Shown: piece after piece, positions 1,001-33,746 of the stretch
How positions within the stretch are numbered: the first letter of the stretch is position 1
How the letters are laid out: each line of letters begins with the position of its first letter
Origin: Catajapyx aquilonaris
Lineage: Eukaryota
Reading direction: 5' to 3'
Assembly: GCA_000934665.2 (NCBI GenBank)
Contig: JYFJ02004068.1
Location: forward strand, 1-35,128
Length of the DNA stretch: 35,128 nt
Notes under the pieces: generated by a model
Database searches by the model: none
What the model saw: the letters and a program-made list of their open reading frames with translations, nothing else
Told to the model about the DNA's origin: nothing
Made by a program: the position numbers and the translations under genes

Positions 1001-1392
1001 CAGGGTGTATGTGAATTCATCTGCCAAAATGATACGAGTGGTAGCTGGTAGGTGTGTAGGAAAGAGGCATGTCATATGTCCGAAAGGCCGGCGACTATCC
1101 GTTTTGGAGATGCCGACCTTTGACATCAACGATGTCTATCCTGACAAGTATATGGATATCCCCATGCATGCTTGCATTGCTGGTTGCCGGGGCTATAGGG
1201 CTCGCACTCCCAGACTATTGCTCAACCCCCCTGGGCCGGCAACCAGAGATGGAGACATGTATCCATACTTTTCAGGATAGACATCGTCGGTCGACATTGT
1301 GTCGTCGACGGCCTTTCGGACCCATGCCATGCTTCTTCCATATGCACTCCCTACCACCTGTATAAATTTGGGATGAATTCCGATACACCCTG
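1001..1392. mobile_element. Tc1/mariner-type MITE
   Basis: Imperfect TIRs CAGGGTGTATgtGAATTCATC / GATGAATTCcgATACACCCTG, TA on both sides (999-1000, 1393-1394). No coding capacity. Confidence 0.8.
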
Positions 1393-2038
1393 TATAGGCA
1401 AACGCACGTCATATTCCAGTTTGAATTTATTCGGCCCGTGAAGTTTTCCCTTACCGTCACCAATCAAAGCCAACTAGCAACCTTGGGCAAGACTGTCCCT
1501 TTCGGAAAATACTATAAGCTGAGCTATAAGCCAAAGTGTAAGCCCTGATCACACATGTTATAAAGTAAGGCCAACCCATGCTACACTGTGAACACACAAT
1601 GCGACAAAGGAAAAGATAATCAGATTAATCACAGTGTGCAGAATTTGTGACGTTTTCAGGATCGACATGCACAAATCTAATGAGATGGTGGTCTACCGTG
1701 CGAAACTTCAATAAGTGTTACTGAACATTGAAAATTACTATTAACTTTCTTAGACTTTGAAAGTTTACCAGCAGTGATTAGGTATAGCCCAGCACAGCAA
1801 ATAATTATGTCCTTTTTTGCCCATTTCCAGTAGCTAACCAGTAGCTAAATGGTCCTCTAGATACCATGCTTACGCCCAGGTTCGGCATTGTTCGCGATCT
1901 CCCTGAAGGGAAATCAGATCTAGACAAATGTTCGAATCTTTGAAATATAACTTAATTTATTGTAGATATTCTCCTAAGAATGTACTGTACACTTATAGGC
2001 CCTAACCTTATAATAAATAACAAATACCACAGAATATA

Positions 2039-2965
2039 CTGCATAGGGGAGACCGGGGCACAGTGGTCCACTTTTGCACATTTGAATTTTTCTAAGAGTT
2101 CCTGTTATACCTACACACTCTATACTGTATTTCCCGGCAACCTTACACCCTGTGACGTCACTAATATATTCACAGGCAGTGCAATCCATTTGGCTTTAAA
2201 ATATTTTAGAAGCTGCCCTATGCAAATGGACCACAGTATCCAGATGCCTGGGGCACAGTGGTCCGGAAGTGATTGGGACCCATAATTCACACACGAAGTA
2301 TATTATATATTTTACCGTATACCGGTATCTAATCCCTCTAAATAAATATGAAATAATAAAAAGGGACTTCTGTTACTGCAACCTGCGGACACAAGTGAAA
2401 CAGCGTCTCTCTCCGGAAAGTAGACCTTGTCCTGCCACATCCTTTGGGGAATGAACTTTATTTCATACTAGTTTCTGTCAAAACCATTAGCATATAAACC
2501 TATACGATGCCATTAATTGCTGTACAGAGGCAAAAGGTCGTCCACAAAGAGGTGCACATTTGTACCACTGTGCCCCACAGGGCAGCAACTGACATGATGT
2601 TATGAAGCGCGGCTTTCATTGCAAATGCCGCTTTCCAAATTTTTAGCATTTATGCACAATGGATGACACTATTCGACAACAGTTTTACATCAGGGTCATG
2701 CCCAGCATCTATACGCCCGGCATGGAAATTAAACTGTGGGTTATGAACTGAGTTACTTCCCTACCCTTTAAATAGCTTTTCCCTGATACAGCAGGATTGC
2801 AGGCATCTCAGAGGTGGCTGCCATGTTGGCACGATGCACAATACTTAGTGACTTGTTTCACGAGGTACCAGATAAATATGTTATTCCAGTTTCTTATATT
2901 AATTTTAAAAATAGAAAGGACCACTGTGCCCCGTGGACCACTGTGTCCTGCTCTCCCCTATACGG
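2039..2965. mobile_element. TA-flanked MITE (Tc1/mariner-pogo-like) with internal subterminal repeats
   Basis: Left end CTGCATAGGGGAGACCGGGGCACAGTGGTCCAC is the reverse complement, with a few mismatches, of the right end GTGGACCACTGTGTCCTGCTCTCCCCTATACGG. TA on both flanks. The GGGGCACAGTGGT motif recurs internally near 2250, 2565 and 2920. Confidence 0.7.
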
Positions 2966-5900
2966 TATACAATACAACAATCACTATTAGACAGTAAGCC
3001 CAACAAAAAGTCCACAGACTTCCAAACCACCAGACTGCTCCAATATCCAGATGGAAAAATAGCAAACGAAACATTGGAATGCGACAATCAGATAAGGTGT
3101 GTGATCGGATGTCCTACACTCTATAGGGCGGTGAGTGTATCAAAGGCCCTCTACACGAATTTAACATCTAACTTGGAATTTGGTTACCTCAGAAATGTAT
3201 GGTTTCGTTAGGCCAGGCGATGTTGGTGTTTCTAGCAACAATAATTTTATACTAGCCCCAGCAGGTCACCTCCAATTTCACGGTTGTCAAAAATTCTCAT
3301 AAAAGGTAGATTATGCAACTTTTTAAAGACATACGATTTACAAAACGCTGTGGTCGTTAGCTACCGGTACATTACATGAAATACGAAAATTGTACAGTCA
3401 CAGCGACAGAACACAACGACCTCTTACTGGAAATCCGGTGAGGTTCATCTTATACATTTTGGTCGTGCGTAGGTGTAATCAATTGGCGATCTGGTCTTGT
3501 ACAGTAAGACGTGCTGCGCCTGGCGCGCTATTTCAGGGACTCTCTCTTGATTGCTCAATTGAATCTATTGGGAAGCATGGAAGCGATGAAGAAGCCCGCT
3601 TTGCGCGTGCCCATACAAGTCTGGCCGGTTGAGTGACCTCTGGAGAGACGCACCGCAATCTCTTACTTCCAGGGAGACCGAAGCTGGAGGGTTGATCTTA
3701 TCATTCAATCTGACCTAACTCACCCTGTTGAGAAGCGAGTGAGCGAAAGCTTCAGTCTCAGCACAGCGAAGCATTCGACAACTGAATTATGAACGTCTGG
3801 ATTTCTGACTGCTTATACCGCGATGGTGATGGAAGATGGTGCCGGCGGCATGCGGATGGCGCCTCTTTACTCGGCGGGAAAGCGAAAACTATTTTAACGA
3901 GAGGGGAGGGCTAGACAGGGGACGGGAAGGAGAGCGAGGAGTTAGTAATATAGCACTGATTTTTTTAAACAGCAGAAAATAGAAGAACCGAACGAAGGTG
4001 ACATACTTAACAAAAACATATTTGAAACTACAGTGCGGAAAACGTTGCTGGTTGTCAACAGAATTGTCATCACGTCCGGTCGAGTTATGCATTCGTTGAC
4101 AGTCGGCATTAAAATAGCTGCCTAGGCAAGGTTATGGCCTCCATATTTTATCATATTTCGATGGTATCAAAAGTCTCAAAACGTCTATTTACACAAGCAG
4201 GATCTGTCCAAACTTCACCAATATATTGGGAAAATAATCTGGCTGGATACTGTTGTTGACTAGCCCTAATGATGCAGGACGCTTCACAATTCTCGAAATA
4301 TTTGAATCACTTCAGGCATTTGCAACAATATTTCACTCCATAGTGCCAGAAAAATGCAGAATTTTGTTTATTTGCAGCTTTCGTATCTCCATATACGAGT
4401 ACAAGAGATTTTCGGGAAAAAAATGAAATCGAGGACAGGACAACGTTATAGTTTTAAAAACGCGGGAACTGCATCGATGTTCATGAATATGGGCGTCTTT
4501 TTGCCATAAGCACTTCATCCAACCCAGCTCAAAGAAAGAAAAAAGCCTTTCCCCAGAGGGTCGTGTTCCAAAATTACTCTGGTGTCAAAATAATGAAGTC
4601 ACATTTTCTTTCGCCTTAATAATTGACTCGAGTGAAATTATTTCAAGTGTATGCAATACCTGTCTCAAAAATTGCGGGATCTTTGGAGCACCCTGTACTA
4701 TGATATGCAGTTGTTCCCAACTTTCATGTAGCCTATACCACAGACACTACACGAAACAGTGTCATAGTGAAGGTAGTAATATTGTTTACTGCTTTCGTCC
4801 AGTGCAGTGCAGTGATGGTAGGTAAAGTTAGCTTTTCTAATGGGGGAGCCACTATGAGGTACTGTATTCCGAAATAGAGGTGGAGTCAGAAGTCCAGCGA
4901 ACTACACGAACTACGGGCACATGTGACTGTCAAGGCATCATCTATTAAGTGTAGTACGGTAGGCGGTCTCCGAGGCGACGCGACGTACAGTACCATATAA
5001 GGTGTCATTATACTTCAAGTGGGGCCTGGTCTGGTAATGTAACGAGGCTCAGGAGACCCAAAGATACCTGTATATGAAGTTTATACTTTAGTGATCAGGA
5101 GTTTTCATCCTAGAACTTTGTCTAAATATAGGCGTAATATTACTATGAAACGTCCTCTATATAGAGTTGTTCCTTTCAGCAAATTATTGCGCAGGAATAG
5201 CACGTCTGGACACAACACATGCTGTAAAATGTGGGTCATGGTGTCCTTTGCAACTGCTCTCTCTATATTGTTGGTAACAGTTAAAACAACCGTGAAAGTA
5301 AAGAGTTATAATACAGTATATAATCTTAACTATATTCATCATTATTCCTATGAGATGAAATAATATTTACGTAGACTTTTTTGAATACTAAATGTTAATA
5401 CAGTATTATGTAATCATACCAGAGAAAATGGGGCAAACCTATACAGTAGTTTAAAATGTAGGTAAGTTGTTAAGCGATTTGTATTATTTTGTAGATCAGT
5501 ATTATTATACCAGTATACGGTATAGTTGTATTCATCGTTATTAGTAGGCCCTACTATTTTTAACAAGAGCTAGTCGTTTCCCAATTGGAATTCTTCAATG
5601 GTCTTATATTATTTTGGCATATTATACTCTGTGCATCAGAAGTGAGCTCACATCCGTATCGGTTTATGGACTCTCCTGCATCAAGGTGGTACTCCTGTAC
5701 CTAAGAGAGTACCCGCCAAGTACAAATGTGTAGAAGCAACGAAGGTGTTCTTTTCCCGTTGACTTGACTTCGGCCTGAACGAGACAGGTGCCTCGTGGAG
5801 AAATTATATTGAGAAAAAAATTCAAATTGAAAATCGTAGTTTATAAACTGGTTATTATCATTTACTTGATAAAATTGGGAAATCTTTCTTATGACTTCAT

Positions 5901-10560: not shown

Positions 10561-12954
10561 AAGTTACTTATAGTGTAAGGAGGTGTTTTATGAGGAAACA
10601 TAGTATGCTTTAGTAGTGTGTTATGCCACCGAAACGCAAGCAGTAGAACAAAACTATTGGAACGCCCTATACTCATTGAAGTCGTATAGACATATCGCAA
10701 AATTATAGATTAATAGTTCATATCTGTATAGTGTATACACTATAATGATCATTGCATAATGGATAATAAAGACATTAGTAAGCCATCATATTTTACACTT
10801 TTATCCTCTCCTGTTAGTAAGGTATATTCTGGGGGGAAAAGCCGCCGTTCTAAGAGTGGTTTGTTATCAGGTCGAATCTTTACTTAGGCGTAGTGCTAAT
10901 AATTCATGACAAGTACCGTTGTTCATGTGCAGCTCAAATTGCCGTGGTGGTGAAGGCCTCTACAAAAAAATATTGGCAATAAAATGATCAGGGTTCTCCA
11001 GCAGCTCTTGTCTCACATTTTCCTACTACTATTATTTTGATGCGAGTGTTTCTCAAAATTATCCTTACACTGCCAGTCCGGAAGTACGTATTACAGTATT
11101 TCACGAGTACGACGACAACGACAACAACATACTAAAATGATAATAATGATGGATAATTATGTATACTCACCATGTTTCACAGCTTAGGAAGTGAAGTTTT
11201 CATTAGCCTATATGGTGTATTGAACTAGTGAGATATACCGGTACATACTCTGGTACCGCAACTAACATAATTAATTTTTTTTCTAGACAACTTTCCAAAC
11301 GCTCATAATTCACATGTCAGTATATACGATACTAGGCTGGCTACACCGGTAACACAATTTACAAGATTATGCAGTATCAAATTCAACTTGGGGGCAGACA
11401 TACTGTTGTGAAAATGTCAGAAAGAACATGTTCATACCTCCGGGCAGTATTTCGCAATTGGTATTCAGCGACGTAAGTCATTTTTGCAAGAAATATAACC
11501 TAATTACGTCTTAATTGAAGCACTGAAGTCACTCATTAGAACCGAGTGCAATAACTCAACCTTTCCAATGCAGAAATGAACTCGTTCGCCGCACGGTTTG
11601 CAGTGATTTGTAGTCACTGCTCCGACCCCCAATAATCTGATCATAAAGTAGAGTAGTTCAGTTAGGAATCCGAGCGCGCTAAGCGCTCGAATATTGGGGC
11701 CATGTACATCACGACCTATGAGATCAGCAGGAGAGAGAGAGAGAAAAAAAAATGAGCAGAAAAAAAACAATGAAGCACAGAATAGCGGTGACATAAGTGG
11801 GGGTGGTCTTAGGGGTCATTCGATCAGCAGTATCCAGTTCAGGAAGTGTGGCCAGAAGAAGCTGGTCCCAAGGATTGCCGGCCAATCTGGCCACCTGGAT
11901 CGCTCCGAGACAAGATGGCCTCGCCTATTTTCCTCCTCCGCCTAGCTGACTGCCTGACTGCCTGCCTGCCCTACCTGCCTTCCTGCCCATTTTGCTCGAA
12001 CCTTATGATCCCCCACATGTGTGGCCTGCAGGTTTGACCACAGGTTTGCCTCATTCATCATGTTTCTCCAGGGATAATTATGACCACCCTGATCCCCACG
12101 TGTGCTCGGGGTCGTAAATAATTCTAGTCCCAATCAGCTGCTAGTCTTCTGAGTCACGTGCTCAGTGCCATTGCGTCTATTCTGGCGTTTAGGATGAATC
12201 ACTTGGGTTTGGACTGTTGTCGCGCTTTAGAAGTGATTCACTAACGGATAAGTAAATGGTGACACGGTTCATTTTACGCTACACCTGCATGCTTTATAGC
12301 TTGATATGTTGCCTCTTTGCTCCTGGGTGGTCAGAATGTTATAGTGGCATTCATTTATAGAATAATAATTGTCTGAAACTCTCTGAATGTTGATAGCCCT
12401 CTTGAGAAGGTCGATGTTGAGTCAATGTTGTGCACGGAGTATCTGTACCACATTAAAAGCGAGCCAGCTAAGTCGACAGTACGCGGATATGGTGACGAAT
12501 AAGGCAAGGAATAAATACGCCAAAAAAACCTGGACAAGTCTCATCTAATACCAATGGACCAATTGCAGTGGTAACTGAAGGCGATTTCCTTTAACAGTGC
12601 TGTGAAGTGCAGGTGAATGGGACGTTTGTTCCAGCAAGTGGGACAGGTATCTCACTGTCAGTGTCTTGGAGAATATACTAGAGTAAAATATTAATTATGC
12701 AGTTCGTTATTATTGCCTCTCTTTCCTTTTTACCTTCTTTTTCTCTCTTTGCCTCCATCTTCTATCGTCTATCCCATATCACTGTGTATATCACCAGTCC
12801 CTATGAAAATTGAACACTGAGAGTTCTCAGTGGGGTTCCCTCTCGAAATATTCTCCGAAACTCCCGCCACTCGGGGGGGGGACTGCTGTGACCGAGGAAA
12901 ACATATCTGCTGTGGGGATCATGGTAAAATGGGAGATAGGGGGTTGACAGTTAG

Positions 12955-13099
12955 GTACTATCGGGTTCAAATACATTTGGCCACTTTATCCTGGTCTTGA
13001 AGCAACCCTTCGCACAGACCCCCACGAAGGAGGTGTGAGTGAAGGGTTTCTTCAAGACCAGTATAAAGTGGCCAAAAGTATTTGAACCCGCGATAATAC
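12955..13099. repeat. ~145-bp near-perfect palindrome (hairpin-type non-autonomous element)
   Basis: CGGGTTCAAATACATTTGGCCACTTTATCCTGGTCTTGAAG...CTTCAAGACCAGTATAAAGTGGCCAAAAGTATTTGAACCCG: the arms are reverse complements around a short central loop. Confidence 0.85.
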
Positions 13100-13526
13100 A
13101 TTGTAGCAGAGGTCTTGGCCATCAGTTTGGCTGCGGTGGATACCATTCTTCAGCCACACATTCCCCTCAGTGAGGTCTCCGCTCGTTGGGTACAGTACCG
13201 CTCAGCCTCACAGTTCGACACTCAATAAGCTGAGCTGTACCAGGCCATCTTGATTTTTTTTTTCCGCGACAAGGATGACTTTTTCGCACGGTTAGTGTTA
13301 CCAAACGAAACTTTCAGCACGTTCCTATTCCCCAATATGAAAAACAACTTTATGGAAGGGTCGATGGATGCGTCTCATAAGTGATTGCTGCTGTGGAGGA
13401 GGTGTTGGACTGTTGGGTGGGGTTCCAGAAACCATTTTTTGAAGGACCTGATAGAAAAATAGAAAAAACGCTGGAAAAAGCGTATCAACATGCAAGAATA
13501 TTACGTTGAAAAATAAAATATCCCTG

Positions 13527-13838
13527 TGTGACCGAGCGGTTTGGTTCAATGGTGGTGAGATAGAAATATAGGGCAACTGAGATCGTATTCAAGTCCTCTT
13601 TAATGCGGAAAACAAAATAGTAAGTGAAATGGAAGTAAAGGATAGTGTGGGGTAGGTAGGGAGTGACCTCCTCCTACGGATATGCTCCGATAGGAATCAG
13701 CCTCAATTCGGAGACAGAGTGAACTTATATACATATCATAACCCTGAGTATGATGGGAAAGAGACATGTTAGTTGATAACAGCACTCAAGGGAAGAGAAG
13801 TCCATCTAGCGATGAAAGTTGAAAGTTCACCGGTCACA
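13527..13838 (-). repeat. 3' LTR
   Basis: TG...CA ends with an 8-bp terminal inverted repeat. Minus-strand TATATAA at 13725-13731 and ATTAAA at 13599-13604. Confidence 0.95.
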
Positions 13839-13994
13839 CACCTCACGGCGAAGCTAACGGACACCCATAAAGAAGTTAAGGTCCGTCAGTTCAGGTGGTC
13901 ATCTTTTCCAGCTAGAAGTTAACGGTCCCGACATCAAAGAGGTCGTCAAATATGTCCGGTGGTCGATGATGATGAAGTCATTTGTTGGTTGATT

Positions 13995-14564
13995 CTATGG
14001 TGTAGTCGTATCAGGATCAGCAGGAGGCGTCGTAGCAGCGTCGGTACTCGTGTTGGTCCCCTCCAGGAAAAGCGGCATAGGCAGCTTCTCAAACATACGA
14101 AAAGGCAGGCAAAAGGGATGAGGCACAGGCGAGCCTTCTTCATTCCAAACTGCGACGCCTGAGAACAGCAGACTGGAGCAGTTCATGATGCACCCGTAGG
14201 CGGCGTATATGTCTGATGCAATGACGATGGGGACGATCAAATCCGTCACGACAAGGAAAGGCCTCCATACTTCTACAGCTCCCAGTTGAATCGGCAGGGC
14301 CACGCGTCCCAACGGAACAATGTTCAGTTGGTTTGGCAGGCTGATGTGGCGTCGCACTGGCAGCAGGGGAGGTCGTAACGGGACTGGTAGAGCCATCCAC
14401 ACTCGTTGGTCGATGGATGAAGACACAGCTCCTCCATCCAGCAGTGCGGTCCACTCCATTCCGTGTATTGATGTATGGATGGTGGCAGAGGCGATGACGT
14501 AAGGGCCCCTCTTAGGTTCGGTGGACTCTGTGGACTGTGCTGGTGGTGGTAATGCTTCCGCCAT
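13995..14564 (-). CDS. Retropepsin-like aspartic protease homologue with non-canonical active site (189 aa from ATG at 14564)
   Basis: WTALLDGGAVSSSID matches the ALLD(T/S)GA motif with T/S replaced by G. PLGRVALPIQLG...FLVVTDLIVPIVIASDIY matches the C-terminal ILGxDFL region. The ATG is in ACCATGG Kozak context and the frame is uninterrupted. Confidence 0.8.
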   Translation of the reverse strand: MAEALPPPAQSTESTEPKRGPYVIASATIHTSIHGMEWTALLDGGAVSSSIDQRVWMALPVPLRPPLLPVRRHISLPNQLNIVPLGRVALPIQLGAVEVWRPFLVVTDLIVPIVIASDIYAAYGCIMNCSSLLFSGVAVWNEEGSPVPHPFCLPFRMFEKLPMPLFLEGTNTSTDAATTPPADPDTTTP

Positions 14565-14696
14565 GGTGTCTGTTGATCCTGGAGTCGGTTCGCCTTCCAA
14601 TGACTAGATAAACATGAAACAATGATAAGTCAATATTTAGGTGAGCAGGAAAACCAAGAATGAGGTCGGGCAGGTTGGGCACGGCCGGTTTTATGC

Positions 14697-15554
14697 TCAA
14701 GGAAACGCAATGCATCTTGGATCCGGTGCGCGTTTCGAAGATACTGAACAAACGTCACTTTTAGCTTGGCTCATCGAATGGCGAGATCTGGGGTTTATTT
14801 CCCGAGGTCCAGCCGCCCCCATATAACACCACTCTTCCAGGGTAAAAGCAAGAGCTGGTAAAGGGGGGTGGGGTCCAATTGTCCGATGATTTAACAAACC
14901 GCCAATGGGGTTAATGGCGATATTAGATCGTCGCCTTTTGACACTTTTGGAAATCACCAGTGGGATACACGTCATGTGTAAGGAGGGAAAGGAAAGGTTC
15001 AAAACAAAAAAAGGTCCACTGTAGGTGATCCGAAATAGGTCACGATGCTCTAAAAGGATGTCGTACCGTGACTCAATACTCCTGTCCGAGACAAATCGAA
15101 TTTGTCTGAGGTCGTCAGTCTCCTGTCCCTTCATATGACGATGAATTTCCAACAAAAGAAAGATCACTCTGTTCTCACACTTAACTTCCGGTAGACACGG
15201 CGCGTGGTATAGGGCCGCGACACAACAGTTGTATGCCTGTATAGCACAACCCGGCCGCAGGTCCTCCCGCGACTCGTAAGTATCTTCAGACGTGACCACT
15301 GGACTCCGTCGACAGCTCAGAGGTTGTATTGCCTGTATAGCACAACTTGTCTGCTCGTAAGTTTCTTCAGATGCGGCCAATGGGCTCCATGGACAGCTCA
15401 GAGGTTGTATCGCCTGTATAGCACAACTTGTCTGCTCATAAGTCATCTGTATGGGGGTCCGTCGTCCGGTTGATAACACCGACATGGCTAGTCGACTCCA
15501 AAGGCGGTTCAGAGGTTGTATTGCCTGTATAGCACAACTTGTCTGCACATTCAT
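14697..15554 (-). CDS. 285-aa ORF of the LTR element: N-terminal QTSCAIQAIQPL repeats and a putative winged-helix/LOTUS-like domain
   Basis: The frame stays open through 3-4 repeats of unequal but frame-preserving spacing. The domain guess is a by-eye pattern only. Confidence 0.5.
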   Translation of the reverse strand: MNVQTSCAIQAIQPLNRLWSRLAMSVLSTGRRTPIQMTYEQTSCAIQAIQPLSCPWSPLAASEETYEQTSCAIQAIQPLSCRRSPVVTSEDTYESREDLRPGCAIQAYNCCVAALYHAPCLPEVKCENRVIFLLLEIHRHMKGQETDDLRQIRFVSDRSIESRYDILLEHRDLFRITYSGPFFVLNLSFPSLHMTCIPLVISKSVKRRRSNIAINPIGGLLNHRTIGPHPPLPALAFTLEEWCYMGAAGPREINPRSRHSMSQAKSDVCSVSSKRAPDPRCIAFP

Positions 15555-15696
15555 TAGTCACTCGCACAGAGGTCTGTGTACGTACGTGAGCAGCGATCCT
15601 CCCTACGGATAGCGGGCGGCAATTCGCCAGGTCCCTTCGTATCAGGGACGTCGCTACCATAGAGGTGAATATACCGCAGAGGAAAGAATAATAAAG

Positions 15697-15714
15697 ATCC
15701 CACTTCTGACACCA
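15697..15714 (-). promoter_or_regulatory. Primer-binding site complementary to the tRNA-Leu 3' end
   Basis: Minus strand TGGTGTCAGAAGTGGGAT, 7 nt inside the 5' LTR. It is the complement of ...ATCCCACTTCTGACACCA, the 3' end plus CCA of metazoan tRNA-Leu (recalled sequence). Confidence 0.9.
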
Positions 15715-15721
15715 CTTTTTA

Positions 15722-16033
15722 TGTGACCGAGCGGTTTGGTTCAATGGTGGTGAGATAGAAATATAGGGCAACTGAGATCGTATTCAAGTCCTCTTTAATG
15801 CGGAAAACAAAATAGTAAGTGAAATGGAAGTAAAGGATAGTGTGGGGTAGGTAGGGAGTGACCTCCTCCTACGGATATGCTCCGATAGGAATCAGCCTCA
15901 ATTCGGAGACAGAGTGAACTTATATACATATCATAACCCTGAGTATGATGGGAAAGAGACATGTTAGTTGATAACAGCACTCAAGGGAAGAGAAGTCCAT
16001 CTAGCGATGAAAGTTGAAAGTTCACCGGTCACA
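15722..16033 (-). repeat. 5' LTR
   Basis: Identical to 13527-13838; the ORF track gives the same 61-aa translation in both. Followed on the minus strand by the PBS. Confidence 0.95.
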
Positions 16034-17794
16034 CCTGTTTGCCTACGTCTTGTTTTTCAAGCAAAAGTCGCGAACTTTCAGAAAGCCCCTCGTATACATG
16101 CGCAAAATTAGTGTCCTTGGCATTTCCCCTTCGAATCAAATGAAACTTAGAACGACTTGCGTTTGTAGTCTCCGTAATGCCGGCCATCTCTTACGAAGCA
16201 CCATAGCCGTAATCGGCCATCATTGGAACATCCCATCTGTCATAGTACCGTATATTACTTTTACTTCTTGGATATCTGGAATATCTAATTATAACTTATT
16301 ATATTATATATTACCAGTATATTTAACGTAAATTCCGCAGATTTTTTTCTCATGGCGAAAATTGTTTACGTATAAGTCCAGATGGTCCGGATCTATGCAA
16401 GTCGAGGCTTTCTGTATTTACTGATACAGTATGTATACCGCACTATTACACAAGATGTTCAAATGATCGGAGCACCTCTCTAAGATGTAGGTTCCTTGCA
16501 ATATTACAAATACCAAGTACAGTACAAGTAGAACATGAGCCGTCCAAAAGTCAAATGTCTGAAATCCATGCTATAGTAGCGTTTTGATTTTGAGTTTGGA
16601 CTCTTCAATATATTACCCTATAGTTAATTTTAGCTATTTCGGCTTCCTTTCGGAGATAATCCACATCAGGTTATGCAAGCAGGTAATGGGCGTCATCCTG
16701 TGCATCAGGCGATCAAAGTAGCAAGGGGGGTTGTAAGTCAGCAAAACCTACAAAATTACTCCTGTTAGACTATGTTTGTAACCTTTAAGATGCCAATATC
16801 TCCTTAATGAGATCGGAGGCGTCAAATAAGTTATATCATCCTAGAAATGAGCAAGGAACCAACATACGAGATGAGCTTTGCAAGCTTTGCAACACCCTGT
16901 ACAGAACTTGGCAATAAAGTTTGTCAGAAATGCAGTGGTGTTTCACTAACGCAGAAAGTAATCAAAGAGAAAATGTATACAAAAATATAAATGATTATTA
17001 TCATTGTAATTTGTGCAATATTTACGCAAGTTTCAGAGCAGATAATGAGAATGTTGAGTGAATTGACCAAAAGCCATTCTTACCCATGACACAAAAACCA
17101 TACTTATACGAAGTATTTCATTCAGGGCGCCTTAACTTCGCATCAGCCCCTGACATCTCGAACTTTGCTGACTATACGCTCCTATAGACACTTAAGAAAC
17201 AATAAGCCCGTTCAAACCTGCTGTCAACAGGAATTGATTGAGCTGGAAATGGCAGTGACGTTGGTGCAAGAATATTGAGGAAGAGTGAAATATGTTCAGG
17301 GACATGATTCATTATTTTTATTACACTTTCCCACTTGTCCTTTTGGAGGACGCTGATGATAAGATGAAACCAATCAAGCTATTCCTATACTTGGATCAGG
17401 GGCAGAAAAGGTGTGCATAATGTGACCTAATCCCCTTCACTATATCCTATCTGGAGGTACTACCCATTATGCCTCTACTACTGCTAAGTGCCGATGCAAG
17501 GACAACTTTCCACATTCGGATCTCGTGTGTTACAGAATTTATTTATGGTCTACACAGCTAGTGTATAAGTGAAATACGTGTTACGAGTTAAGACAGTAGC
17601 CCGCAGTCCCTCTTAAGCAACGGTATCATACCACTTATTCCAAAACACCTTTGTCCAATGACACTTCCCACTTTATTGTGAGACAATAATGGCACAACAA
17701 TGATTATGCACAGATTCAGGTGGCCATGCTCTACAGGCAATGTTGCACTGTGCCGCTGAAAAATATTTTTTAAAGTGTGCTACAGAGTCAAATA

Positions 17795-19369: not shown

Positions 19370-20344
19370 AATTCAGATACGTATGTGAGTACATACGAGT
19401 AGAGGATGCACGTGGGGAATGGGCCCTTCGGAAAATATGGATTTGTAAATCCGTCGCTGGAGGCAGACCAAATCAAACTGCAGTGGGATGGATCCATTGC
19501 ATAGGCTTGCACATCTTTTAGGTGCCTTTTGAGAAAATTATTATCCTTTGCGTTGGGAAGTATTTCCTGGACATGAGGTACATTCTCCAGGAAATGAATG
19601 ATGTCACTTCCAGACTCGCAATGGAAGCAGTCAGTGCTCACCATATACTCATGGCTGGAGTCAAAGTGAAGTCCCAACTTGAACTTCACCTTGGTCAAGT
19701 GCAGCCTCATGAAATGGTCCTTAAAGGGACACTCCACTCAAAATACAAGTTGGGTTCTAAAAATCGGGCAAAAAATCCTGATTCCGAGGGTATAAGCAGT
19801 TTTTCTTAGAGACGAACGGTAAGGCCAGTGTGAAAGCTTGAAGTGTGTCGTTCGAAAACCGCGCGCGGGGCGGTGGGCGCAGGTGGCGACGCCACCAGAG
19901 TGGAACCGGGCGGAACTAGACCAGGGACGCCTGGTGCGGCAGGTGTTTACTGTACGCGCTATACTTCTCCGGTTTGCCGCGGGATGCTGTTGTATCGCCC
20001 TTCTTAGCAGACGACGTGTGTAGATATATGATTTTCCGTGTTACCGTTGGGCGTAGAAAAAAACCGATTGCACATTCGGAATCAGGATTTTTTTCCCGAT
20101 TTTTGGGGGCCAACTTGTATTTTGAGTGGAGTGTCCCTTTAAAGTGGTTGTCCCTCACCCAAACCACGAACAAATACTTGGTTTTAAGAATAGTTGCTTG
20201 TTTGTAGAGATGCTACAATGTTTGGTCCAGTGTGCCCATGCATGTCGTTATGAAGTGAACAGCGCAGTTATCTGTACTCCTCAGCTCATCTTCGCTTGTG
20301 TAGTCGAAGTGTGCCACTTTGACCGATGACACGGTATTTATGGC
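19370..20344 (-). pseudogene. Disrupted coding fragment, possibly a divergent ionotropic receptor N-terminal/S1 region
   Basis: Removing the MITE plus one TTAA (418 bp) joins ...YLFVVWVRDNHFK to DHFMRLHLTKV...STDCFHCESG...EILPNAKDNNFLKRHLKDVQAYAMDP... in frame. One internal stop at 20213-20215. The family guess rests on CxxCxxG followed by an LP..nFxxRxLxV-like pattern. Confidence 0.4.
19725..20138. mobile_element. Kolobok-type MITE (TTAA TSD, purine-start TIRs)
   Basis: ~60-bp TIRs AGGGACACTCCACTCAAAATACAAGTTGG..., TTAA at 19721-19724 and 20139-20142. The ends begin AG rather than the CC of piggyBac. Confidence 0.85.
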
Positions 20345-20350
20345 CTATGC

Positions 20351-21030
20351 ATACGCCCGTTCCCGGAAAAATTCCGCAATTGACAAGTTTTTGTAACATT
20401 CAGGGTACGTTATGGACAAGTTTCATTACATATTTATCTAGAGCGAATCCTGTCCATAACGGACCCTTTCCATAACGGAAACTTGCCTATTGCGGAATTT
20501 TTCTGGTAACGGGCGTATGGAAAGTACACGATTTCCGCGTCGAATATAGCGGAAACTTGCTCATTACGGAAAATTTTATCCCGTGCATTTCCGCCATGCT
20601 CAGATTTCACTGAATATAGCTAGATGGGAAGTAAAACCTGTCCATAACGGACCCTGTGTATACAGGAAACTCGTTCATTGCGGAATATTCGAGTCCCGTG
20701 TATTTCAGCTATGCACAGGTTTCGCTGAATATAGCTAGGTGGGAAGTAAAACCTGTCCACAACGGACCCTGTGTATAACGGAAACTTGCCTATTGCGGAT
20801 TTCTTTCTGGTAACTGGCGTATGGAAAGTACACGATTTCCGCGTCGAATATAGCGGAAATTGTATAATTTTCATACGCCAGTTACCAGAAAAATTCCGCA
20901 ATAGGCAAGTTTCCATTATACACAGGGCCCGTTGTGGACAGGATTCGCTGTATATTATATACAGCGAAACCTGTACATATCTGAATAGCACGTGACTCTT
21001 AAAATTCCGCAATGAGCAAGTTTCCGTTAT
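20351..21030. repeat. Cluster of direct and inverted copies of a pogo/Tigger-like MITE terminal unit
   Basis: The unit CCTGTCCATAACGGACCC...AACGGAAACTTGCCTATTGCGGAATTTT occurs forward at about 20449, 20637 and 20752, and inverted at about 20351-20430, 20873-20950 and 21000-21030. Confidence 0.7.
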
Positions 21031-21283
21031 ACCCTCCTGAGACCCGAGAAGCCATTTGTGCAATTATTTAGTAATACTTTGAAAGAACCTTCTGTAGTGG
21101 AGGTGTAGAAGCCATTTTTCAGAATTTCATATTTTTGTTGCAATCACTTATATATAGGACATTGGGTCTTAGCTATAACATTCCTTTTCTGTATTTCTCA
21201 GTGAATTTTAAAAAAACAAACTTTCATCTTTATTTCAATACAGCAGCTTATATCTTACGTTTTCCTTGTACAGTATAGCCATA

Positions 21284-21326
21284 CTAGCGGTTACATTCGC
21301 CGAGTGTCCCCTATATAGGGGTCGGC
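21284..21326 (-). mobile_element. Helitron-like 3' terminus (hairpin followed by CTAG|T)
   Basis: Minus strand GCCGACCCCTATATAGGGGACACTCGGC hairpin, 11-nt spacer, then CTAG followed by T. Confidence 0.5.
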
Positions 21327-21332
21327 GTCCTA

Positions 21333-22142
21333 ATGTTCTCATTGGTTGTTTGTCACTATTTTTGTGGATATTTTAAAACTAAATTTTTTTTCTCGTTTCT
21401 TATTGGGAAAATGTTCAGAAAATGCGTTAAAAATTCTTCTCAGGTCTCAGGAGGATATTTATTACGGAAGCACCTCCGGAATTTTCCTGGAAGGACCGTG
21501 GGAAACCACAGAAAACCACGGTCAGAGTTCCCGGCCCCGAGATTTCATCCCAGGACCTCCCGATTAGCAGTTGGACACCATGTCCCCTCCTCCAAACTTC
21601 GAAGGCTCACGAGATGTTCTGCGGCAAGGGAATTGAGGTGCCAAACCGGAAACAATATATTAAGCAAGGTCGATTCAAGCGATGGCAATACTTCAAGAAA
21701 AGTTCAGCTTGCAAGTAAAAGTGCGACTCATCAAGTTGATCACAGCCCTACGGTTACGTGTGACGTAGATGGAGGAACACACCGAGCTGAACTGAATTCC
21801 AGCACTGCGCAGAATATTGCACCTTTACGTCCAAAGAAAATTCAAGTGTTCCAGTGTGAAAAGCGCGGCAAATGTGTGAAGTCTAGTTCATCCTTCAAGT
21901 ACCACATACAACGTGCATGTCCTATGCTCGGCGCCGTGGTCGAAATGAATCGTAAGCACAAATGCGAGACATGCGGAGAGGGCTTCAGAAGCAAGACGCA
22001 GCTGGCGGATCATTCCCGGGTGCACTATAAGACATTGAAGTGCGAGATATGTGAGAAACGATACTTCTTAAAACACAACTTCATCAGGCATCTCCAGACT
22101 CACCTGGATTGGCCGACGCACACTCGGCGGAAGAGACAGTAA
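21333..22142 (+). CDS. C2H2 zinc-finger coding segment (exon or pseudogene fragment); true 5' boundary probably an acceptor near 21443-21450
   Basis: Two canonical fingers, CETCGEGFRSKTQLADHSRVH and CEICEKRYFLKHNFIRHLQTH, preceded by a damaged finger CEKRGK...H (second Cys replaced by Arg). Fingers span 21855-22103. Confidence 0.7.
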   Translation: MFSLVVCHYFCGYFKTKFFFSFLIGKMFRKCVKNSSQVSGGYLLRKHLRNFPGRTVGNHRKPRSEFPAPRFHPRTSRLAVGHHVPSSKLRRLTRCSAARELRCQTGNNILSKVDSSDGNTSRKVQLASKSATHQVDHSPTVTCDVDGGTHRAELNSSTAQNIAPLRPKKIQVFQCEKRGKCVKSSSSFKYHIQRACPMLGAVVEMNRKHKCETCGEGFRSKTQLADHSRVHYKTLKCEICEKRYFLKHNFIRHLQTHLDWPTHTRRKRQ

Positions 22143-29266: not shown

Positions 29267-32200
29267 CTAATTATGGAAGCACTCCTGGTATACAATGTTT
29301 TTGGTTTTTCCTTTTGGAGCATACACGAATAAGTTGCTGGGGGTTCCTACTCATGAACATTCAACATATAGTTGTCCATGCGAAAAACTTGCATCCTCTA
29401 ATTGTAAACCTGCAACTGCCAATGTCTGCCCTTGGGCTTTGTTTATGGACATTGCAAAACTGAGTGTAACTGGGAATTCGAGCCTTTTAAACGGAACAGG
29501 CAAGTCTGTGTCTGATGGAATGAGAGGGATTCCTGGCAATAGAACCTTTTCCTCTTCTCCACATCCTGTGAGGATTTTGGCCTCAATCACATGTGGCATC
29601 ATTCTCATGACTGCCAGTCTAGTCCCATTACATAGTTGAGGTGGATCTAAATTGCACAGCACCATGATGGGTGCTCCTGCTTTTAGCTCCAGTTTGTGCG
29701 GAGGAAGACCAGGAGGCTGTAGTGAATTTAGGAATTCCGTGGGATAATGAATAGCTTGTGATTCATCAGGAACTGCGTCAATAAACCAGTAGGCTACACA
29801 TGAGAACTACCAGGGAAAGATTTCAACATCTGTGAATTAATTTCGTTTACAGCGTTGTTTTTTGGCGGAAGTATGGCTCTTTTGCAAATCCACTTGTGAT
29901 CCAGGTAATAGTGGAGGTGTGAAAATACCTTTTCTTTCAACTCATCCACTTATTTGACAAAAGTGGAAAAGAGCTTCATGTCCAAGTTTCCGTCTCCATC
30001 AAGTTTAATTTTGCCCTCGCCAAGTTGTAAAAGCCTCTGCACAAATTGTCCTGCAGCATTCTGGTCTCCAAAGAGTTGGATTCTCATGTTTGTCTTCAGG
30101 GTAAATCGTATAGCTTGAGGCCACAGACAGGATGACTTAATGCATGCTCTGAGTAGATCAGCTCTGGTTCCTTTAGGGATGACTGGAAGTGTCTGTCGGA
30201 AATCTCCAGAGAGGAGAAGGGTGACACCTCCCAAAGAATTCTTGGAACACCTTAGATCTCGAAGAGTCCTATCCAAAGCCTCCAAAGCCGCCTTATGGGC
30301 CATCGTGCACTCATCCCAAACAATAAGCTGACATTCTTTTAGTACCTCTGCTGCTCCATATTCATTGGTAATGTTGCAGACCGGTGTGTCTCGGGTGGCA
30401 AAGTTGAATGGGAGCTTAAAAGCAGCATGTGCTGTCCTTCCACGAGGAAGTAGAGTTGCAGCAATTCCAGATAATGCTACAGCCAAGCCAATTATTCTCT
30501 GCTGTCGTACTTTAGCGAGTAAAAGTTTCGTAAGAAAGGTTTTTCTAGTACCTCCAGGGGCATCAAAGAGAAATATGCCCCCTTTTTTGCTAAGTACATG
30601 ATGAATTATGGTGTCATAGGCATCTTTTTGATCCAGTAGTAGCTTTGGCTCGTTGACATATGTTGTTAGCGCTTCAATGTTGTAGGAGGTCTCCCTAAAC
30701 ATCTCAGGACTAAATTGGTCAGAATGTGTTTGGTTAGGCTTTGGCAGGCCGTAGGCAGGCAGATCCTTTCCTCCAATGGAAATTACCTTGTCTTCTAGAG
30801 CAATTAAGGCCATGTTATAAATATCATTGTTGAAGTCAATATGGATGGCAGGAAATTGCAATTGAACTTGATGGTTGTAGTCTTCAGCAAGAGCATCCTT
30901 GTACTTGTGCCATAAGACAACTGGATTGCTTGCATGGCAGGTTTCCATTACCACAGCAAACAGCGATCGTAGATGTCTAGGCAACTGAGCCACGGAAGCT
31001 TCAGACAAAGCATCCCACTGGGCATCATCTTCCAGCAATCCACGTAGGTAGCAAGCCTCTCTGTAAGTTCCAAAAACCTCTCCATCTACAGTTCTGAGGT
31101 CTTGGAATGAATTAGGTCCTTGATGTAGGAGGAGGCGCAGATGGAAATACTCATGTTGATTGGGATGCACTGTGCAGACTCTCCCTAAGGTATCGTCAAA
31201 CTTAACATGTGGGTGACCTTCAACATTAGTTCCTCTCTTTGTTGGGCACCACTTATTTTTTTCCAAGTGTAGTAAGATGGAAGTAGGTAGTAAAGCAACG
31301 TCTGGGCAAATGGATCATCCTGGCACAGGTTGAAGAATGCAGTTAAAGTGGTGTCTTTGGGAGCCAGTGCTTGCTGAATTGCGTTATGCTCAGTGAAGTA
31401 GACTCTCTGGCCGTTTTCCAAATGGACTGCAAGTTGTTGGATGGCTGGATGGCGCTCATGAATTGGAAAGGCGAAGATTCTCCAAAGCCTCACTGCTGCT
31501 TATGTAGTGGCCTTGTTGGTACTGCATGACTTCATCGTGTACATTTTGTTGTTGAAGAGCAAAAGCAGCAGCATATGAGCCCTTATTCACATATTTGCAC
31601 ACATATTTTATGGACTTAACGGAATTGCAATATTCCACATTTATATGGGCATTAAAAGCTTTCGTCAGCAAGGGACTGTACTGTACTATCCATTGGTTGT
31701 CCACTTCATGTTTACCAACCTTTGCTGTGAATCCACCATCCTGAGGGCTTCTTCTTCTGTAGGAAGGGGATCCGTCATCTCCTGTCTGGGTTTCGTTTAG
31801 AAATTTCCTGGGATATCTTTTGGTACACTTATCGCCTGCCATGCAAGGAGAGTTGGGATTGAGTTTTCCACATCGTCCATGCACCATTGTGGCCTTCAGA
31901 ATGTCGTAGAGGCATTTGTCTAGTGAGGGATCAGGGAGTTCAGCTGTAATAATGGAGTCAATCTGATTGGAATGAATTTTAGTAGAAAGCCAGATCAGAA
32001 TATAGGCATGTGGTAGTCCTCTCTTCTGCCACTCAATAGTGTGTACATGTCACATCGAACAGGTCCAAAAACTTGACCCTTCTTTATAAGGGCCATCAAT
32101 TTAAGTAATTTAAGGTGGAAAACCCTTGCTGAAATATCCGGTCTATCTTTAGGTGCTTGACCTGGAAGAAGCTCTTCTACAATTTCGTTCCACTTACAGT

Positions 32201-33746
32201 TAGAGTTGCAAGTGAAGGTAATGAATAAGTCAGGCCGTCCATAGTGTCTAACCTATGTCATTGCATCTTGTGTACGCTCATTCATATATCTTGGGCCGCC
32301 ATTGTAACTTGATGGAAGAATGCATAGTTGTCCTAGTTGTCCTGCTGCAGTGTCATTGTTGATGGCATCGCGCAAGTGAATATGTGAATTTGATCTCAGA
32401 TCTTTTTGATAGGTCCGAATGTAACAAAGCCTGTCCGGCTCGATCTTGGCATACATGTCCACAGCGTATTGGTGGAAAAGATTTTGGCTTCGATGTAGGT
32501 GATTTAAGGAACCATGACGGAGCATGACGCGATAAGAATAGAAATCCATTCAGGAAACAGTTTTGGAATTTCCTCCCCGTTGTGGAATGTCGAAGTGGTA
32601 CCCATCCTCACCATTTACAAAAAGAAGAGGATACTGGAGAGCATCATATGATCTGTGGGTCTCGCTAATTTGCTTGATACCTTTTGCGTTGTCTCTGTAT
32701 TGGATGACGATGTCTCTCTTCGCATGGGGCTGGCCAACCATGATTACAGCTACCTCATTGCAAGATGGTGCATTGTCTTGCATTCTCTCCTGATGGCCTA
32801 TTGTCAGCATTAATGACTACTTGCAAATCAAGGGTTGGATTACATTCTAAGGCATGCTTGAAGCTCCTGACGTAGTTGTTGTCGGCATGGATCATGTCTT
32901 GAAGTTTCATAATTAGTTCAAGTCTTGTTCCTGGCGAAATCGAGTTGCGTATCTCTGCCTGTGTTTGTAGATCCCCAACAAAGTAAACCTGCAGAAATTG
33001 GGCCTGTTCGTTTGGAAGAGGCTGTAGAGTTCCAATGCGGTGATATACCTGACCTTGGACCTTAAATGTAGGCATAAATCCAACCTGGGTACTAACGATC
33101 TTGGCCCCAAATGATGTCATTTGAAAGGCAGAGTTGTACTTTCTGACATTTGATAAAAAGTGCCTTGATTCTTTGGCTGTGCCAGTGAGGAGTAATCTGA
33201 GAGGCTCAGGCGGATCAGGAGGCAAATGTAACTTTATGTTGCCATTAGAACAGCACATTCCGCTGGTTCGTTGCTCCATGTCTTAGCCCCGCAGCATTGT
33301 CATACATGGATCATCGCACCAATGGCAATGGAATGATAAGAGGCGTAGTCGCTTTCTGGGTCATAGTTAAATGCCCATTGATTCCACTGTCGATATGCAT
33401 TAATTCTTACCCTGCCTTGCCTGGCTGCTTGAAGGTGTAGATGGGACTGTCGCTCTTCTGAAGGTTCTTGCTGCCTCTGTCCAGCTTGTCTGGCTGCTTG
33501 AAGGTGTAGACGGGACTGTCGCTCTTCTGAAGGTTCTTGCTGCCTCTGTCCAGCTTGTCTGGCTGCTTGAAGGTGTAGACGAGACTGTCGCTCTTCTGAA
33601 GGTTCTTGCTGCCTCTGTCCAGCTTGTCTGGCTGCTTGAAGGTGTAGATGGGACTCTCGCTCTGCTGAAGTTTCTTGCTGCCTTGTACTTCATTTGCGTT
33701 TGGCAGCGGGAGATTGCCCAAAAGTGCAACACTTCTTTGGAGGCAT
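29267..33746 (-). pseudogene. Helitron Rep/PIF1-helicase (RepHel), multiple frameshifts and stops
   Basis: In order: MPPKK start; CCSNG Zn motif; YGRPDLFITFTCN; EWQKRGLPHAYIL (HUH, second His replaced by Tyr); KYVCKYVNKG (Y2); DAPGGTRKTF (Walker A, Gly replaced by Arg); [37 protein letters not shown]. No AP-endonuclease domain seen. Confidence 0.95.
33416..33682 (-). repeat. 69-bp tandem repeat, about 3.8 copies, encoding 23-aa STPR-like repeats of RepHel
   Basis: Units start at 33421, 33490, 33559 and 33628. In the RepHel frame they read QQEPSEERQSRLHLQAARQAGQR. Confidence 0.9.

Follow-up and report, generated by a model that had tools for sequence, protein, structure and literature searches.

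A young 2.5-kb long terminal repeat retrotransposon copy in Catajapyx aquilonaris, probably a defective Ty3/gypsy-type element that keeps only its protease

How does a retroelement of only 2.5 kb, framed by two identical long terminal repeats (LTRs), come to be freshly inserted in a genome, and do the two open reading frames (ORFs) that it carries serve any purpose of their own? This question is raised by positions 13527-16033 of contig JYFJ02004068.1 of Catajapyx aquilonaris (assembly GCA_000934665.2), whose whole stretch of 35,128 nt was analysed and is called the window below. A first-pass annotation made from the letters of the sequence had seen there a mini-retroelement with no replication enzymes but two unusual cargo ORFs (here ORF A and ORF B), and had offered the idea of a coding satellite that is moved in trans by a helper. 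The evidence assembled here points to something more ordinary: the locus is probably a single young, defective copy of Ty3/gypsy type, lying on the minus strand, that has kept only the protease from its coding capacity.

That the locus is a genuine and recently inserted LTR retrotransposon copy follows from its anatomy (Table 1). The element spans 2507 bp, with an interior of 1883 bp between the LTRs, and the direct LTRs with TG..CA ends, the target site duplication (TSD) and the tRNA primer binding site (PBS) inside the 5' LTR by which such elements are recognised structurally are all present. The LTRs, whose first bases are TGTGACCG and whose last bases are CGGTCACA, agree at 312 of 312 positions, and their identity ends abruptly at the outer edges, with 0 and 1 further bases in agreement. 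A search of the whole window with a 33-nt LTR probe gives two sites, both in the LTRs of this element, against 0 expected. The PBS starts 7 nt after the 5' LTR in minus-strand reading and matches, at 18 of 18 bases, both the mouse tRNA-Leu(CAA) 3'-end probe, for which a sequence is given in PMC7997516, and the complement of the 3' end of human tRNA-Leu-CAA given in PMC10359600, these reference tRNAs not being those of the host. Because the PBS adjoins the LTR at 15722 and is read on the minus strand, the element as a whole reads on that strand; counted in this orientation, the LTR has TATATAA at position 108 and ATTAAA at 235. The candidate polypurine tract, GTGAGGTG, is suitably located and poor in composition (six of eight purines). 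The first-pass annotation had thus read the identical LTRs, the CCTG TSD directly outside both of them, the intact PBS and the TATA and poly(A) signals correctly, and had left the orientation unstated.

One further observation concerns the primer. Nine bases near the U5 end (15727-15735, and likewise 13532-13540), which precede the PBS by 13 nt in the reading direction of the element, show complementarity to the D-arm of tRNA-Leu, at the stretch CCGAGCGGT in the sequence given in PMC10359600; with tRNA-Leu(CAA), pairing at this site would include one G-U. Such an extra primer contact could exist, and it is offered as a lead only, as the chance probability of a 9-nt match is roughly 0.2.

What, then, is left of the coding capacity? 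ORF B is, judging by its sequence and its predicted structure, the retropepsin domain of the element itself. Its frame is fully open, its start lies in the context ACCATGG, and it carries the motif DGGA at the active site (14427-14438) and IASD (14211-14222) in the place where its relatives have I/L-G-x-D. In a feature search of a protein atlas, ORF B scores 0.95 against clusters of retroviral aspartyl proteases, and its best 10 family-bearing matches all (10/10) belong to one family or clan. An exhaustive phmmer search with ORF B as query, run against 1,835,955,588 representatives, returned nine matches at E <= 0.001 (best 3.8e-6), seven of which carry Pfam retropepsin families at E <= 0.01; the curated cut-off is passed by four of the nine, and match P0003 has no Pfam retropepsin family. 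Match P0002 was excluded from the alignment, being a repeat protein whose seven matching stretches all fall on residues 131-158 of ORF B; the eight relatives that align over the domain are 28-36% identical to ORF B. In the resulting alignment of nine rows (ORF B and these eight), residues D43, G45, A46, G86 and L90 are invariant. A profile made from the eight relatives, with ORF B left out, gives ORF B a score of 90 bits (E 2.7e-27); of the 747 six-frame pieces into which the window was translated, none of the others comes below E 2.8. The AlphaFold2 (AF2) model obtained with the relatives' alignment has a core predicted local distance difference test score (pLDDT) mostly of 84-96, and Foldseek relates this model to the RVP domains of Ddi1 (probability 1.0, E 3.8e-6, TM 0.74) and to HIV-1 protease (probability 1.0, root-mean-square deviation 2.6 over 103 columns), with resemblance also to viral aspartyl proteases. 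The single-sequence AF2 model reached a pLDDT of 34.7 and was unusable, and among longer proteins 1752 word-sharing candidates for ORF B were scored, none of which passed.

In predicted fold, and in the layout of D-x-G-A, flap Gly and I/L-G-x-D, ORF B resembles the retropepsins of Ty3/gypsy elements, the RVP domain of Ddi1 and ASPRV1. It differs from retropepsins in having D-G-G-A instead of D-T/S-G-A, in having Ala instead of Gly, and in lacking a polyprotein around it. The former change keeps the Asp, the second Gly and the Ala, and its G is common to one of the eight relatives; the latter, at the Gly of I/L-G-x-D, is unique among the nine rows. The assignment to the Ty3/gypsy type finds indirect support in the company that the nearest protease (PR) relatives keep: they sit in CCHC-PR and PR-RVT_1-RT_RNaseH_2 polyproteins, with a CCHC knuckle just upstream of PR in relative P0004 and a PR-RVT_1-RNaseH architecture in relative P0011.

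Beyond the protease, neither reverse transcriptase (RT), RNase H, integrase nor a CCHC motif was found in the interior, either by Pfam on its 19 translated pieces, which gave no family and four chance-level rows (E 0.08-0.17), or by tblastn with 12 fetched relatives, which bears out the first-pass description of some 1.9 kb devoid of these enzymes and of CCHC. When searched against the window, 10 of the 12 relatives match, all within 14549-13992, that is, in the protease stretch, and the best match of their RT and RNase H parts has an E of 0.72, even though the queries included a PR-RT-RNaseH protein of 914 residues. Because tblastn matched this stretch only, ORF B appears to extend into the PR-RT linker for about 55 residues before it ends, with the rest of pol missing. 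Scans of the window with Rfam and for tRNAs gave no match in either case. It follows that the statement that no replication enzyme is left needs correction, for one pol enzyme remains in the form of the predicted retropepsin, and that the cargo reading of the two ORFs falls with the recognition of ORF B as the element's own protease.

ORF A, which shares its strand (minus) and its reading frame with ORF B, is a different matter: it bears no sign of being a protein, and instead of a working gene it is probably a stretch of leader or decayed sequence. It has no Pfam family, and neither do the other interior frames; no homologue was found in the near or longer length classes of the protein search; a comparison with PDB sequences gave one chance-level row, an annexin at E 1.3; and a BLASTP comparison with gag from a tRNA-Leu-primed gypsy element of a metagenome (locus L003, described below) came no further than E 1.2. 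Its protein-language-model score is low, with an atlas recognition of 1076 and no usable match, where 91 in 100 proteins of known families reach 2300. Purine content is flat over the codon positions (0.51/0.47/0.49), and G at the first position is 0.24, where ORF B and the Helitron helicase of the window both have 0.31. The N-terminal 110 residues are translated repeats (Table 1), in which a 36-nt core is kept as DNA and the remainder drifts. A conserved core with a drifting remainder is the usual pattern of regulatory repeats in retroelement leaders. As a hairpin, the core is no more stable than its shuffles (z +0.66 to -0.97). An AATAAA on the minus strand inside ORF A (14794-14799), about 900 nt downstream of the PBS, could, as read from the sequence, end transcripts before ORF B.

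Table 1. Features of the element at 13527-16033 and of its target site, in window coordinates.
Feature	Position	Strand	Support or remark
Target site duplication CCTG, left copy	13523..13526	.	Directly outside LTR
3' LTR, 312 bp, TG..CA ends, 8-bp terminal inverted repeat	13527..13838	-	312/312 identity to other LTR
Weak polypurine-tract candidate GTGAGGTG	13839..13846	-	Directly upstream of 3' LTR
ORF B, 189 aa: predicted retropepsin domain, then about 55 residues of PR-RT linker and unmatched tail	13995..14564	-	
Predicted retropepsin (protease) domain, ORF B residues 28-135	14160..14483	-	Hidden Markov model, AF2, Foldseek
Spacer between ORF A and ORF B, 132 nt, 4 stop codons in the shared frame	14565..14696	-	
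ORF A, 285 aa, no recognisable family	14697..15554	-	
Four copies of conserved core of about 36 nt, spacings 96, 81, 111 nt	15222..15550	-	
81-bp repeat family, three of the four core copies	15273-15545	-	
tRNA-Leu(CAA) primer binding site	15697..15714	-	18/18 bases against complement of tRNA 3' end
5' LTR with TATATAA (15920-15926) and ATTAAA (15794-15799)	15722..16033	-	
Target site duplication CCTG, right copy	16034..16037	.	Directly outside LTR

Is the copy one of a family that moves in this short form? Five runs of one organism contain the stretch, four of them from a single sample. Contigs of the runs X1, X2 and X4, all from that sample, and of X5, from a second study, were aligned to 12000-17500, with a detection limit for a second copy of 85% identity or more. 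A single contig covers 13810-15346, at depths of 25.4 (X1), 21.2 (X2) and 17.5 (X4), where the unique flanks have 33.9-36.4, 27.3-28 and 17.8-21.6, respectively; the internal 1.5 kb thus stands at or below single-copy depth in the runs of this sample. Because every bin of 13840-15311 equals the depth of that one contig, there is no second contig of at least 85% identity on the interior, and the run contigs of this sample do not show the 2.5-kb layout in several copies at separate sites, as a satellite family would imply. The depth of the exact LTR contig (57.3 in X1) is about double that of the interior, which corresponds to the element's own two LTRs and no more, and variant contigs over 13606-13794 and 15892-15989 indicate that a few diverged LTR relatives exist. 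X5, a run whose kind is not given, holds an identical contig of 295 nt (13928-14222) at depth 3.1, which cannot be read as expression.

The same sample also contains an empty-site form. One contig joins 13522 to 16034, skipping 2511 nt, i.e. the element and one TSD, and keeps one CCTG; its depth is 10.7 in X1 and 7.9 in X4. In X1, the sum of 25.4 and 10.7 equals the depth of the flanks, as expected of an insertion that segregates with its empty site. Since this form is present in the same sample, the insertion is taken to be polymorphic; a paralogous empty site in place of an allelic one is the weaker alternative, the near flanks being moderately repeated. Together with the identical LTRs, the empty-site form upholds the earlier claim that a non-autonomous element was inserted recently.

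How might such a copy have arisen? Its LTRs with TATA and poly(A) signals, tRNA-Leu(CAA) PBS and weak polypurine tract would provide the cis signals for transcription, priming and integration, and its coding remnant would consist of the protease domain and the start of the PR-RT linker, with RT, RNase H and integrase gone and Gag either gone or unrecognisable. As a copy of this kind would be unable to make its own cDNA or to integrate it, RT and integrase (and Gag) would have come from another element, presumably a helper acting as enzyme source. The short form itself may have come about by template-jump deletions in a longer parental RNA during the same replication cycle, or by a deletion at the locus after integration, and these events taken together have, in our judgement, a little under an even chance. 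Alternatively, an already short master RNA may have been packaged in trans, an origin that we hold to be possible but somewhat doubtful. Both template jumps and illegitimate recombination are described for non-autonomous LTR elements in the sugar beet survey discussed below (PMC13570524). The present evidence does not separate the two routes. The identity of the LTRs had been taken to indicate that exactly this 2.5-kb structure was the template of reverse transcription, a conclusion that goes too far, as a deletion during reverse transcription or at the locus gives the same picture. As no other interior copy of at least 85% identity occurs in the contigs, the source copy, long or short, is missing from the sample; on every route, its absence is in keeping with a family that has few copies and in which insertions segregate at low frequency.

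Several observations weigh against reading the locus as a defective gypsy-type copy reduced to its protease. A parent gag-pol element with the same LTRs was not found, so that descent from a gag-pol element is read from the protease homology, and the interior at 85% identity or more occurs nowhere else in the contigs of the sample. The first-pass annotation had set its satellite against a single-copy internal deletion of a standard gag-pol element with the same LTRs; of that second picture the single copy is borne out in these data, whereas the standard parent is not. The three deep runs come from one sample, which is possibly the source of the assembly, and the empty-site contig is absent from X2. 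As to ORF B, by itself it has no Pfam family match and no match among PDB sequences at E <= 10, and the eight relatives were chosen by their similarity to it, which makes the profile, AF2 and Foldseek results lean towards a protease; moreover, a fully open frame with a good start context is also what a working protease gene would look like. As to ORF A, when the interior was simulated 3000 times with a first-order Markov model, a frame of at least 286 codons arose in 0.07% of cases (P 0.0007), and 222 codons, the length with the repeats collapsed, in 0.9% (P 0.009). Its repeats are spaced at 96, 81 and 111 nt, each of these divisible by 3, and it is in the frame of ORF B, for which reasons it may yet be a gag that has diverged beyond detection.

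Do these points add up to a semi-autonomous GAG/PROT element, in which ORF A would be a fast-evolving Gag without CCHC, ORF B a working protease, and RT and integrase would be borrowed? ORF A does stand in the usual place of gag, between PBS and PR and in the PR frame, with a length that is improbable by chance, and at a protease identity of 28-36% to the nearest relatives, sequence searches could miss a gag of this lineage. The ratio of nonsynonymous to synonymous differences (pN/pS) between the repeat copies is 0.38-0.72 in the frame of ORF A, against 0.62-1.92 in the other two phases, and there is precedent in the 28 sugar beet families for which the survey text reports GAG/PROT only (PMC13570524). 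Yet these ratios are drawn from 9 to 24 differences only, too few for a decision, no Gag, capsid or CCHC signal was found in any interior frame, and the comparison with the gag of the tRNA-Leu-primed gypsy element ended at chance level (E 1.2). An atlas recognition of 1076 is what shuffled sequence typically gives, codon-position skew is missing, and the 110 N-terminal residues are translations of 81-bp repeats in which a 36-nt core is kept at the DNA level and the remainder drifts; between ORF A and ORF B stand four stops, and the single copy does not demonstrate a GAG/PROT family. We therefore regard this reading as unlikely; a variant in which ORF A encodes a lineage-specific Gag-like protein without known relatives is a further possibility. 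The coding satellite of the first-pass annotation, whose two proteins would act on the particle of the helper or on host silencing, for instance by way of a DGGA protease that disturbs the helper's protease, fares worse. The insertion is young, ORF B is open with its own ATG in good context and has kept the catalytic Asp, and its two changes at conserved positions are such as a dominant-negative subunit could show; the same substitutions, however, fit early decay equally well, ORF B is ordinary pol sequence and not cargo, ORF A lacks a protein signal, and the layout exists as a single copy with no second one found, all of which makes the satellite very improbable. A related scheme, in which the short element persists because its stand-alone ORF B is expressed, pairs with the helper's protease in particles and poisons or hijacks their maturation, and in which the four 36-nt leader repeats would be packaging or regulatory sites, is without positive support and equally remote. 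Finally, an assembly artefact, or a recombinant of two solo LTRs around unrelated DNA, might be suspected because LTR-bearing repeats are often misassembled and the flanks adjoining the element are moderately repeated (depth 107-285). It is nevertheless scarcely credible here, since independent run contigs tile the whole element without differences, covering both junctions (13268-13556 and 16005-17500 in X2) and the interior (13810-15346, 15325-15538 and 15517-15751), and since the TSD, the PBS beside one LTR and PR in matching orientation make up one coherent element.

If the defective gypsy-type copy is accepted, where does it belong among known elements? The closest known group is that of GAG/PROT-remnant elements. 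A sugar beet survey (PMC13570524) describes 28 families reduced to GAG/PROT, for many of which no partner can be traced; like the copy described here, such remnants combine full LTRs, PBS and TSD with a size in the gap of 1.5-4 kb between the two established non-coding groups, terminal-repeat retrotransposons in miniature (TRIM) and large retrotransposon derivatives (LARD), and they have a Ty3/gypsy-type protease remnant, neither RT, RNase H nor integrase, and no traceable autonomous partner. Unlike it, they come from a plant and have several copies per family, whereas here there is one copy with no detectable GAG and an open protease ORF. Terminal-repeat retrotransposons with a GAG domain (TR-GAG), as defined in the pertinent text of PMC4350172, have a GAG ORF as their sole coding capacity, no protease, and at least two copies. 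They are alike in being short (<4 kb) LTR elements that are coding, lack polymerase and integrase, and are thought to be mobilised in trans; the copy studied here shows the reverse pattern, with the protease present, GAG not detected and a single copy, and falls outside that definition. TRIM (<~1 kb) and LARD (>~4 kb) elements both have non-coding interiors in the descriptions that these two sources provide (PMC13570524, PMC4350172), and an animal TRIM is described in PMC3532108. The non-autonomous nature, the LTRs, the PBS and the TSD are shared with these groups, but at 2507 bp and with an open protease ORF, the copy fits neither definition, as far as the cited texts set them out.

The pattern of LTR end and PBS was also searched for elsewhere. 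It occurs at no locus in viral contigs and at eight loci in metagenome contigs, which were rejected as family members: seven of the eight match the element only around the PBS, and locus L005 has no blastn row against it at E <= 0.001. The sole protein match between these loci and the element is that of ORF B on L003, at E 0.37. L003 contains, at 1222-5486, a complete-looking gypsy element of gag(CCHC)-PR-RT-RNaseH-integrase type with an LTR end of ...GGTCACA and a tRNA-Leu(CAA) PBS; beyond the PBS it has no sequence similarity to the element of the window, and all that can be concluded from it is that this LTR end and primer occur in gypsy-type elements.

The importance of these findings is modest, and no new class of element is opened by them. 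Non-autonomous LTR elements with coding remnants are already known, and the present copy would be an ordinary broken one and not a new kind of coding satellite. It does point to recent activity, in this organism, of an LTR retrotransposon lineage remote from the protein collections (best protease identity 28-36%), it offers a clean example of a defective copy that would have retained only its protease, and the insertion, still segregating with its empty site, can be used as a presence/absence marker.

Some features of the surrounding window deserve mention as well. The DNA on either side of the element (13104-13526 and 16038-16231) is moderately repeated, with a summed depth of 107-285 and with internal-deletion joints; as both flanks behave in this way and are represented by several variant contigs, the element appears to be nested in another repeat family. 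Farther to the left, 12962-13090 forms a near-perfect palindrome with 62-nt arms that are 89% complementary and a loop of 5 nt, and in X1 the depth of its words adds up to about 110,000, where the unique flanks have about 34. It looks like a foldback repeat or one akin to miniature inverted-repeat transposable elements, with thousands of copies, many of them in variant or deleted forms. On the minus strand of 29351-33282, Helitron-like coding remains extend over several frames, with a PIF1-like helicase (E 1.4e-59), a Pif1 2B domain and a weak Rep-like match, and adjoining them, an open frame contains an array of 69-bp tandem repeats (33347-33683). Between the element and these remains, 19721-21032 is dense in direct and inverted repeats, with arms of up to 103 nt at 87%, and lies just upstream of an open frame (21288-22142) with a C2H2 zinc finger.

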